Origin: Paramecium tetraurelia
Lineage: Eukaryota
Direction: 5' to 3'
DNA: 64,000 nucleotides
NCBI GenBank assembly: GCA_000165425.1
Contig: CT868108.1
Coordinates: forward strand, 310,001 to 374,000
A program made the translations under genes and the position numbers. Of the stretch, positions 17,381-18,468 are shown piece after piece. How positions within the stretch are numbered: position 1 is the first letter of the stretch; each line of letters begins with the position of its first letter. Under the pieces are notes generated by a model. The model was given only the letters and a program-made list of their open reading frames with translations. It made no database searches and had not been told where the DNA came from.

Positions 17381-17677
17381 ATGAACAAATATTTAATACT
17401 TGCAGTGGCCTCCTTATTTATACTACTGATAGCATATTAAACGACTTCAGAAACTAACCTAAAATAAAAGCAAATCCACAATTTCAAAAATAATCATCAA
17501 AGAGAAATTGGATATTAAAGTGATAATGAGGAATGTAGAAATAAATGTCAATAAGCAAATGGAATGAATTGTGGAAAGAATTGGTAGAATTGTTGTGTTC
17601 CTGATTAATGTGATATCGGTTGGATAACTGAAATATGCGATAAGAGAATTAGAGTTATTGGATGCACAGATGAATGA
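17381..17677 (+). CDS. small secreted cysteine-rich protein (98 aa, 8 Cys), copy A
   Basis: MNKYLILAVASLFILLIAY signal-like N-terminus, basic spacer, then CRNKCQQANGMNCGKNWQNCCVPDQCDIGWITEICDKRIRVIGCTDE*. A paralog lies on the opposite strand. Confidence 0.85.
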
Positions 17678-18119
17678 TGCTTATATACATTGAGTAAACA
17701 TATATTCATATTAAATTTAATTACTCAATGCTTGGTAATTTAAATGCTTATGTTTTGTCATATTAAAATATTATGCTAATCACTAAATTTATTTGATTAT
17801 TAAATTAAATCATAGTTTGGTCTTCATATTTATCTACAATTAAAGATATCAAATGTTGGTTTAAGTTAATATGTGTTGTTAGTTAACAAATATAATTAAG
17901 ACGATCATTAATCGTACTTTTCTGTTTACAATTGTCATATGGATATACAATTAATTCCTTAAAGCTAATTTTACATATTTAACAACTATTAAATATGTAA
18001 AAATTCTCAGAAAATAATCATTAATACTGTGTTTCTAGAACCATTAAGATAAGCGGATTTAATTAATTATAATCTACTGTATTAGATGAATAGATCAACT
18101 TTTAAATGTTAAATGTATA

Positions 18120-18468
18120 TCATTTTGGAGTTGTGCATCCTTGAACTGTAACTCTTTGATCACAAATCAAAGATGTGGAGAAGAAATTCTCTTCTTTTCT
18201 GCACTTACTTCCAACACAGCAGTTTTGTTAGTAATTTCCACAACTCATTCCTCCTGCATTTTTACATTTAGTTTAGCAATCTGTATCTGATGACCAATAT
18301 CCATCCATTCATGATTCTTTGATGATGAAAAAGAATGACTTTTCTTCATTTTCAATTCTCCATCTACATCTATTTATTATCAATACCTTGGGTTGAGAAG
18401 GAAAACATCAATGTGGCCATACAAACTACACAAGCCATCAATAAGAGAAGGGTAATCTTTTTGTTCAT
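18120..18468 (-). CDS. small secreted cysteine-rich protein (8 Cys), copy B, with two apparent 1-nt insertions
   Basis: MNKKITLLLLMACVVCMATLMFSFS, a 23-nt intron, then CQTKCKNAGGMSCGNYQQNCCVGSKCRKEENFFSTSLICDQRVTVQGCTTPK*. The frame is restored only by removing single bases at ~18330 and ~18305. Confidence 0.75.

Follow-up and report, generated by a model that had tools for sequence, protein, structure and literature searches.

A convergent gene pair from a conserved family of eight-cysteine proteins in Paramecium tetraurelia: an intact copy and a frameshifted, still transcribed remnant

Introduction

Do two small convergent genes in the Paramecium tetraurelia genome both encode working cysteine-rich peptides, and is the family to which they belong diversifying or conserved? 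The question is raised by positions 17381 to 18468 of a stretch of 64,000 nucleotides (contig CT868108.1 of assembly GCA_000165425.1, forward-strand positions 310,001 to 374,000), which is called the window here. A reading made from the letters of this window without database searches, referred to below as the sequence-only reading, had proposed two tail-to-tail genes at this locus, copy A and copy B. Both were described as intact prepro-peptide genes with the same eight-cysteine framework, and both were assigned to a diversifying family of secreted effectors or signals. Copy A is an intact, conserved and transcribed gene. Copy B is a frameshifted remnant that is still transcribed. The locus is most likely a convergent pair from an old, unnamed family common to Paramecium and Tetrahymena, which are oligohymenophorean ciliates.

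In animals, plants and fungi, much of signalling, defence and toxicity is carried by small secreted proteins rich in disulfides. To our knowledge, almost nothing has been established about such proteins in Paramecium and Tetrahymena.

The intact gene, copy A

The window has a G+C content of about 27 % and makes sense under the ciliate code alone. Under this code (table 6), copy A is an uninterrupted open reading frame (ORF) on the plus strand (17381..17677), without introns, which encodes 98 amino acids followed by TGA (P0001) and contains six TAA/TAG codons read as glutamine. The protein is the one that had been quoted for copy A. The statement that both genes had been missed held in part: neither is in the ORF track that accompanied the sequence-only reading, for reasons of genetic code only, but both are already public models, of 98 aa for copy A and 66 aa for copy B. 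The exact copy-A protein is found in NCBI, UniRef and EukProt as an "uncharacterized protein" from a 573,080-bp P. tetraurelia contig.

The copy-A product has three parts, all encoded on the plus strand. After the residues MNK comes a hydrophobic segment (aa 4-19, 17390..17437) of 16 residues without charged or strongly polar ones, which may be a signal peptide or a type-II anchor. The spacer that follows (aa 20-51, 17438..17533) contains a K-x-x-H-x-F motif and a GY. The eight-cysteine domain (C52 to C95, 17534..17665) ends the protein, and its eight cysteines are invariant in the family alignment. Counted from the sequence, the domain region (aa 42-98) is acidic, with 10 D/E and 6 K/R.

Transcription was followed by comparing public sequencing runs, X2, X17, X20 and X24, with positions 17300-18560. 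X20 is an RNA-seq run, X24 consists of raw paired oligo-dT RNA reads, and X2 comes from another study, the kind of its library not being on record. Over copy A, an X20 RNA contig matches 17409-17680 free of gaps and with 0 differences, and the stranded X24 reads reach a depth of 18.6, with the first mate on the minus strand in all of them. The sequence-only reading had been made to depend on the existence of transcripts, and these are present at both genes: RNA reads and contigs lie over copy A, and a spliced RNA contig lies over copy B.

The frameshifted gene, copy B

The proposal of two intact genes stood for copy A and failed for copy B, which lies on the minus strand and is broken between its leader and its cysteine domain. 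Exon 1 (18387..18468) has 27 codons plus 1 base, encodes the hydrophobic leader and gives a tblastn high-scoring pair (HSP) with residues 1-27 of the B orthologues. The intron (18364..18386) has 23 nt and the form GTA...TAG; it is absent from an X20 RNA contig (record 13), and its removal reproduces the public model P0031 exactly. Removing 18386-18364 joins the leader to DGELKMKKSHSFSSSKNHEWMD, and the frame then reads ...KKSHSFSSSKNHEWMD. Exon 2 as now read (18245..18363) encodes the spacer and then out-of-frame residues up to a premature TGA at 18247-18245. The spliced translation is thus 66 aa long and ends in ...NHEWMDIGHQIQIAKLNVKMQEE, its last 18 residues being foreign to the family, and it contains no cysteine domain. 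It is letter for letter the public 66-aa P. tetraurelia (macronuclear) model P0031.

The break can be placed at a slippage site (18301..18308), where intact relatives imply three ATGG units and the window has (ATGG)x2. The DNA at 18308-18301 is ATGGATGG, whereas the relatives require ATGGATGGATGG, so that copy B is one repeat unit short; because of this 4-nt loss its frame shifts and stops at the TGA at 18247-18245. All six B-group orthologues and ohnologues read NHEW(M/L)DGYW and continue GYWSSDTDC after the spacer, the full order being leader, then DGELK(M/L)KKSHSFS(S/A)SKNHEW(M/L)DGYWSSDTDC, then domain. In copy B, frame 1 from the ATG at 18468 runs into TGA stops and the cysteine domain lies in another frame; tblastn yields three HSPs in different frames, which overlap at 18299-18308.

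The orphaned frame of the cysteine domain (18120..18308, minus strand) has 62 codons plus TGA, the coding part being 18308-18123, and it encodes the copy-B domain as it had been quoted. It is open and cut off from the leader. Its product (P0002) shares 90 % identity with residues 48-109 of the intact protein P0021, it keeps eight of eight cysteines, and it contains no second stop or indel in its 62 codons. In the public P. tetraurelia models this downstream frame is unannotated, and the annotation of P0031 carries no flag marking it as the frameshifted remnant of a 109-aa family member.

Other ways of keeping copy B in frame were considered and rejected. Introns of 17, 48 or 53 nt either meet a TGA or lose the conserved GY. 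The 23-nt intron alone does not restore the frame, since a TGA is reached, although the intron itself is confirmed by RNA.

A spacer ending in HQR had been described as common to both copies. In copy B the HQR lies in the unused frame 1, and it was seen as common because the two copies share DNA words in different frames. These words, CATCAAAGA and GGATATT, are found in the spacers of copy A (17381-17530) and copy B (18468-18300); their presence may be due to chance, or the subfamilies may have come to differ by an old change of frame.

Transcripts, twin and age of the break

An X2 contig (record 10) matches 18279-18560 with 0 differences and no indel, and therefore (ATGG)x2 is not an artefact of this assembly. 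The X20 RNA contig (record 13) lacks the 23-nt intron and otherwise has 0 differences from the same interval, the 4-nt deletion included. The broken copy B is therefore still transcribed, its transcript is spliced, and the deletion is present in this RNA. The disabling change is seen against six of six intact relatives and in these independent data (X2 and X20), and it is on this basis that copy B is called a pseudogene.

The X24 reads on the copy-B side have their first mate on the plus strand only, which fits transcription convergent with copy A. Nearly all of them carry other letters than the window, at 18272 (120 of 122 reads), 18325 (138 of 138) and 18353 (135 of 135), and seven reads have a loose end carrying one extra CCAT (plus strand) at the slippage site. 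When the differences are applied to the window, residues 48-109 of P0021 are obtained exactly, which indicates that these reads come from the whole-genome-duplication twin of copy B. P0021 is the intact P. tetraurelia protein GSPATT00012979001, of 109 aa, on a 507-kb scaffold. The twin is well covered in X24, with bins up to about 145, and the window's own copy B accounts for at most 1-2 of about 120 reads.

Over 76 codons, copy B and its twin show 17 synonymous and 8 non-synonymous differences, which correspond to a synonymous rate (dS) of 0.53, a non-synonymous rate (dN) of 0.045 and a dN/dS of 0.08. This comparison indicates that copy B was under purifying selection for nearly the whole time since the duplication and that the slippage is recent: the ratio is low, no second disabling change has accumulated, and all eight cysteines are kept.

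In P. pentaurelia, an intact B protein (CAD8160826) is two accession numbers from the copy-A orthologue (CAD8160824), and a 621,683-bp contig is given for both the A and the B clusters of this species. The pair thus appears to be syntenic and intact there. In the records examined for P. octaurelia, no annotated syntenic B stands beside the copy-A orthologue. P. bursaria has two family members with consecutive locus tags on one contig. The maximum-likelihood tree (26 rows) left 17 of 23 inner branches unresolved and gave no assignment of this adjacent pair to A or B.

Two further observations concern the ends of the copy-B transcript. The spliced X20 contig extends through 18560 and a further 316 nt upstream, and so reaches no less than 408 nt ahead of the copy-B ATG. 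This is unusually long for a Paramecium leader; it may come from read-through, or the transcript may overlap with its upstream neighbour. The convergent 3' ends are separated by an AT-rich spacer (17678..18119) without a family match, where X24 shows an RNA depth of 0 for the bins between 17730 and 18073. A contig of X17, a run whose kind is only guessed as RNA, spans 17934-18306 and so reaches about 186 nt past the original stop of copy B; its coverage of 17934-18119 reflects a 3' end that is long under some conditions, or else the presence of DNA in X17.

The family and its conservation

The paralogy of the two copies was borne out. Their cysteine domains are 44 % identical over 57 aa (BLASTP, E 2e-14) and have the framework C-x3-C-x7-C-x6-CC-x4-C-x8/12-C-x8-C that had been described. 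A tblastn search with 24 family proteins under code 6 found these two copies alone in the 64-kb window, all other matches having E >= 0.06.

An exhaustive HMMER search (phmmer, no length filter) of 1.84 billion representatives gave 14 matches at E <= 1e-3. Thirteen of these are 61-143 aa long and all match over the cysteine region. The single long match (702 aa) aligned to query residues 8-45 only and is without the cysteine framework. The sequence-only reading had allowed that the copies might be fragments of a larger Cys-repeat protein; the exhaustive search found no case of the domain inside long multi-repeat cysteine proteins such as surface antigens.

Together with cluster members and a profile search, the HMMER search yielded 25 full members (92-143 aa), and a word-indexed search with the family alignment contributed three new members only. 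The members come from the P. aurelia complex, P. bursaria (three), T. thermophila, T. malaccensis and T. utriculariae (two groups), and from several ENA and Logan records. The aurelia complex has at least four subfamilies, namely A, B, the P0030 group and P0007. The HMMER search found P0009 (P. sonneborni, 109 aa), whose 90 % cluster contains six proteins and covers the species P. sonneborni, P. primaurelia, P. pentaurelia, P. octaurelia and P. tetraurelia.

Ten positions (C52, C56, G61, C64, G65, C71, C72, C77, C86 and C95 in copy-A numbering) are invariant in all 25 members. The cysteine spacing is 3-7-6-0-4-8-8 in 14 of them and varies in length in the other 11. The loop between Cys6 and Cys7 has 12 residues in six B proteins, 9 in one member and 13 in one, and three Tetrahymena proteins have the spacing 3-12-6-0-5-8-8. 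The conserved surface motifs of the domain are G-x-N-C-G, Q-N-C-C and R-I-x-V-x-G-C-T. The N-terminal layout is also constant: each of the 25 proteins begins with either a short basic n-region or an N-terminal extension of greater length, continues with a hydrophobic run of 13-22 residues and then has a spacer of 23-33 aa rich in K, H, N and S. An L-K-x-K-K-S-H-x-F-like motif recurs in the spacer, and a GY precedes Cys1 by eight residues; the consensus in alignment A3 is L..K..H.F ... GY...N..C.

The orthologues of copy A are 89 % (P. pentaurelia), 93 % (P. octaurelia) and 80 % (P. sonneborni) identical to it, and their Cys6-Cys7 loop, DIGW(I/L)TEI, is nearly invariant across the four aurelia species. 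These identities, the dN/dS of the B twins and the framework retained from Paramecium to Tetrahymena indicate that the family is conserved and not, as had been supposed, diversifying. Conservation from sibling species to separate genera argues against a diversifying effector.

Several further relatives, none of them in the window, were also noted. The P0030 group (110 aa, six cluster members) is 66 % identical to B. P0014 has 10 cysteines and a C-terminal extension, P0029 is a 120-aa variant with a hydrophobic tail at its end, and the P. bursaria model P0010 has an N-terminal extension of 47 residues, which may be a mis-called start.

Searches for known families and folds

No Pfam family reached its cutoff for any of the 25 members. 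The closest was Conotoxin (PF02950), which matched seven of the 25 at E <= 1. The best score was that of P0006 from P. bursaria (23.6 bits, E 1e-4; gathering cutoff 25.1 bits), whose alignment covers profile positions 5-74 of 75 and takes in leader, spacer and Cys2-Cys7; P0011 scored 18.1 bits, and P0022 and P0023 scored 13.5 bits. Other Pfam matches were rejected. The CD20 and Tetraspanin scores of copies A and B are sub-threshold noise from the hydrophobic segment, and the YxzE-like bacteriocin matches (PF25184; six of 25 members, 17-19 bits against a cutoff of 40) cover leader and spacer only and are compositional.

Sequence searches of the PDB, with a single protein and with a profile, gave nothing below E 0.3, and the ESM Atlas gave no usable match. 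A literature search, which did not extend to the supplementary tables of expression atlases, found no paper on the family. To this extent the sequence-only reading was right in describing a family that lacks a name and whose members combine a hydrophobic leader at the N-terminus with a spacer and a disulfide-rich core, since no match in Pfam, among solved structures or in the papers searched supplies a name for it.

Structure models were made with AlphaFold 2 (AF2) and the 25-sequence alignment. The mean predicted local distance difference test score (pLDDT) was 75 at full length and 79.5 for the domain alone. The domain is modelled with a helix over C-x3-C and short strands after it. In full-length copy A, one long helix covers residues 3-27 and the spacer has a pLDDT of 52-60. 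A Foldseek search, which had been suggested as a check against defensin, knottin and pheromone folds, gave no meaningful match: the domain model returned one row from the PDB, the double-knot spider toxin 6cuc (E 9.7, TM 0.21, probability 0.01), and a MutS-type match of the full-length model was rejected as helix noise (E > 1). The best result of VIA wide for the domain model was an unrelated acetyltransferase (Z 2.3), and a second structural comparison of this model with the PDB gave no match with Z >= 2.

Genomic surroundings

The neighbours are ordinary genes unrelated to the family. On one side, several minus-strand ORFs split by short introns (14251-16545) encode a class II aminoacyl-tRNA synthetase (Pfam tRNA-synt_2b, 38.7 bits), which we take from its motifs to resemble glycyl-tRNA synthetase. 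On the other, a 184-aa ORF on the minus strand (21197-21748) encodes a CCCH zinc-finger protein with two CCCH fingers (PF00642 and PF18044, both above cutoff).

Discussion

Our favoured explanation, to which we give a probability of about 0.6 as a whole, is that copy A is a working gene for an extracytoplasmic cysteine-domain protein, that copy B is a young pseudogene, and that both come from a conserved ciliate family. The family would most likely provide a disulfide-locked extracytoplasmic binding module. The 98-aa product of copy A would enter the endoplasmic reticulum (ER) by way of its N-terminal hydrophobic segment. Its C-terminal 50 or so residues are predicted to fold compactly, a helix with C-x3-C being followed by short strands, and four predicted disulfides among the eight invariant cysteines would lock the domain, in which Cys2 to Cys7 are spaced as in inhibitor-cystine-knot (ICK) peptides. 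The domain would then reach the cell exterior or the lumen of a vesicle, where it would be free after secretion and signal cleavage, or else displayed on a type-II anchor from which a cut at the basic spacer might set it loose. There it might act as a rigid binding module, which is the weakest step of the proposal. Such a module is favoured over a cationic antimicrobial or an arms-race toxin because the domain is acidic and slow-evolving and its surface motifs are conserved. The partner of the module is likely to be a conserved one, and it may belong to the cell itself, as is suggested by the strong purifying selection and by a domain that is acidic rather than cationic. Copy B stems from a sister subfamily with a 12-residue Cys6-Cys7 loop, and in this genome the (ATGG)3 microsatellite that immediately precedes its domain has become shorter by one unit. 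Its spliced mRNA now encodes no more than the leader, the spacer and 18 out-of-frame residues. Copy B is a young, still transcribed pseudogene, and the twin GSPATT00012979001 on another scaffold supplies the intact protein.

Several points weigh against this explanation. At 16-22 residues, the hydrophobic runs are long for a signal that is cleaved off, and the UniProt and NCBI entries of several members read "transmembrane protein". Only 25 sequences stand behind the AF2 models, and the fold searches gave no meaningful match, although very small domains score poorly in such searches. The copy A of the window and the core of copy B have no Conotoxin match even at E <= 10. Lastly, copy B is transcribed in X20 at a depth comparable to that of A, and the term pseudogene therefore rests on the frameshift and not on silence.

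The points on the hydrophobic run suit a rival view, in which the N-terminal segment stays uncleaved and serves as a signal anchor. The members would then be small type-II membrane proteins with a conserved basic stalk, the cysteine domain being exposed at the surface of the cell or of its cilia, or in the lumen of an organelle, and the stalk might later be cut at its K-K motif. The 19-residue Kyte-Doolittle maxima of 1.6-3.1, with runs of 13-22 residues, agree with an anchor, as do the single long AF2 helix, the spacer kept within 23-33 aa with its conserved K-K-S-H-x-F-like motif and the annotation of members from P. sonneborni, P. primaurelia/pentaurelia and T. thermophila as transmembrane proteins. 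These annotations are automatic, however, and the short basic n-region and the small residues after the run (…FSFS/AQ, …TTS/E) fit a cleaved signal too. We regard an anchor as possible, at somewhat less than one chance in three. A rapidly diversifying family of effectors, toxins or mating pheromones, in which a fixed scaffold carries a hypervariable Cys6-Cys7 loop, is improbable. That loop is indeed the main length-variable element (8, 9, 12 or 13 residues) and the most variable stretch among the B-group proteins, the layout and spacing are like those of conotoxin precursors, and the aurelia complex holds several subfamilies. But the loop is nearly invariant among the copy-A orthologues, the B twins evolved under constraint, the family is small (14 representatives in 1.84 billion), and an acidic domain with a framework kept since the split of Paramecium and Tetrahymena is unlike the products of an arms race or species-specific pheromones.

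It is very unlikely that copy B still functions, whether because its 62-codon frame is translated from the ATG at 18308, because ribosomes shift frame at the ATGG repeat or because the 66-aa leader-spacer peptide is itself active. The downstream frame is open with all its cysteines, its ATG falls exactly at the repeat, the locus is transcribed and spliced in X20, and dN/dS is low. Yet a start at 18308 would drop the ER-targeting segment needed for disulfides, and this ATG sits 138 nt into the spliced mRNA, behind the main start. A low dN/dS is equally expected if the break is very recent, copy B contributes next to nothing to the X24 reads, and we know of no ribosomal frameshift signal in Paramecium. 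Descent from the ICK/conotoxin O-superfamily lineage, as opposed to mere likeness, has an equally small chance of being correct. It would explain why PF02950 matches seven members and why the sole Foldseek row is a double-knot toxin. Against this, no member reaches 25.1 bits, copy A is unmatched, and the Foldseek row has a probability of 0.01. The family also has two extra invariant cysteines and an N-terminal helix, cysteine-rich precursors with leaders match one another easily by composition, and the taxa are as distant as eukaryotes get.

Among the closest known systems, precursors of the conotoxin O-superfamily and other ICK peptides likewise consist of a hydrophobic leader, a spacer and a C-terminal cysteine-rich core, and the ICK knottin topology has the disulfides I-IV, II-V and III-VI. 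The stretch from Cys2 to Cys7, C-x7-C-x6-CC-x4-C-x8-C, fits the C-C-CC-C-C framework of knottins, and this six-cysteine framework lies behind a leader and a pro-region-like spacer in the whole family (14 of 25 with exact spacing, 11 as length variants). Apart from the sub-cutoff Pfam scores, the family differs in its additional invariant Cys1, on the helix, and Cys8, near the C-terminus, and in a modelled helix over C-x3-C without a structural match. It is also conserved where conotoxins are hypervariable, and it belongs to free-living ciliates and not to a venom gland. In the cysteine-stabilized alpha-beta (CS-alpha-beta) fold, C-x3-C on a helix is bonded to C-x-C on the C-terminal strand. 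The defensins and scorpion toxins with this fold resemble the family in small size, in an N-terminal leader and in a C-x3-C helix, here modelled, against short beta-strands. The family has CC instead of C-x-C, the latter motif being absent from all 25 members, its domain is acidic, and the fold searches returned no defensin. The pheromones of Euplotes form three-helix bundles with 6-10 cysteines and are highly polymorphic within species. They share with the family a ciliate origin, a prepro-like layout and a small disulfide-rich part, but the family is modelled with a helix plus strands, is conserved across genera and gave no sequence match to them.

A bolder extension of the favoured explanation is that the predicted four-disulfide fold, a helix-capped core with knottin spacing, is new and specific to ciliates, and that the protein is a secreted, conserved ligand of the cell's own machinery. 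We consider this unlikely. If true, the ligand might be, for example, one of the autocrine survival or growth factors long sought in Paramecium and Tetrahymena cultures, and the K-K-S-H-x-F spacer would be a processing or sorting signal.

Nothing previously held is overturned by these results, as the genes had been annotated and the general kind of protein is familiar. The public P. tetraurelia models for A (98 aa), B (66 aa) and GSPATT00012979001 (109 aa) have identical sequences to those described here and carry no family, domain or function label. What is defined here is a compact family, conserved and expressed, which lacks a name, a Pfam model and a solved relative and on which the literature that was covered contains no paper. 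One public gene model is corrected, the 66-aa protein being the remnant of a 109-aa one. The family is a tractable experimental target, and copy B offers a clean, datable case of the loss of an ohnologue through microsatellite slippage after the Paramecium whole-genome duplications.

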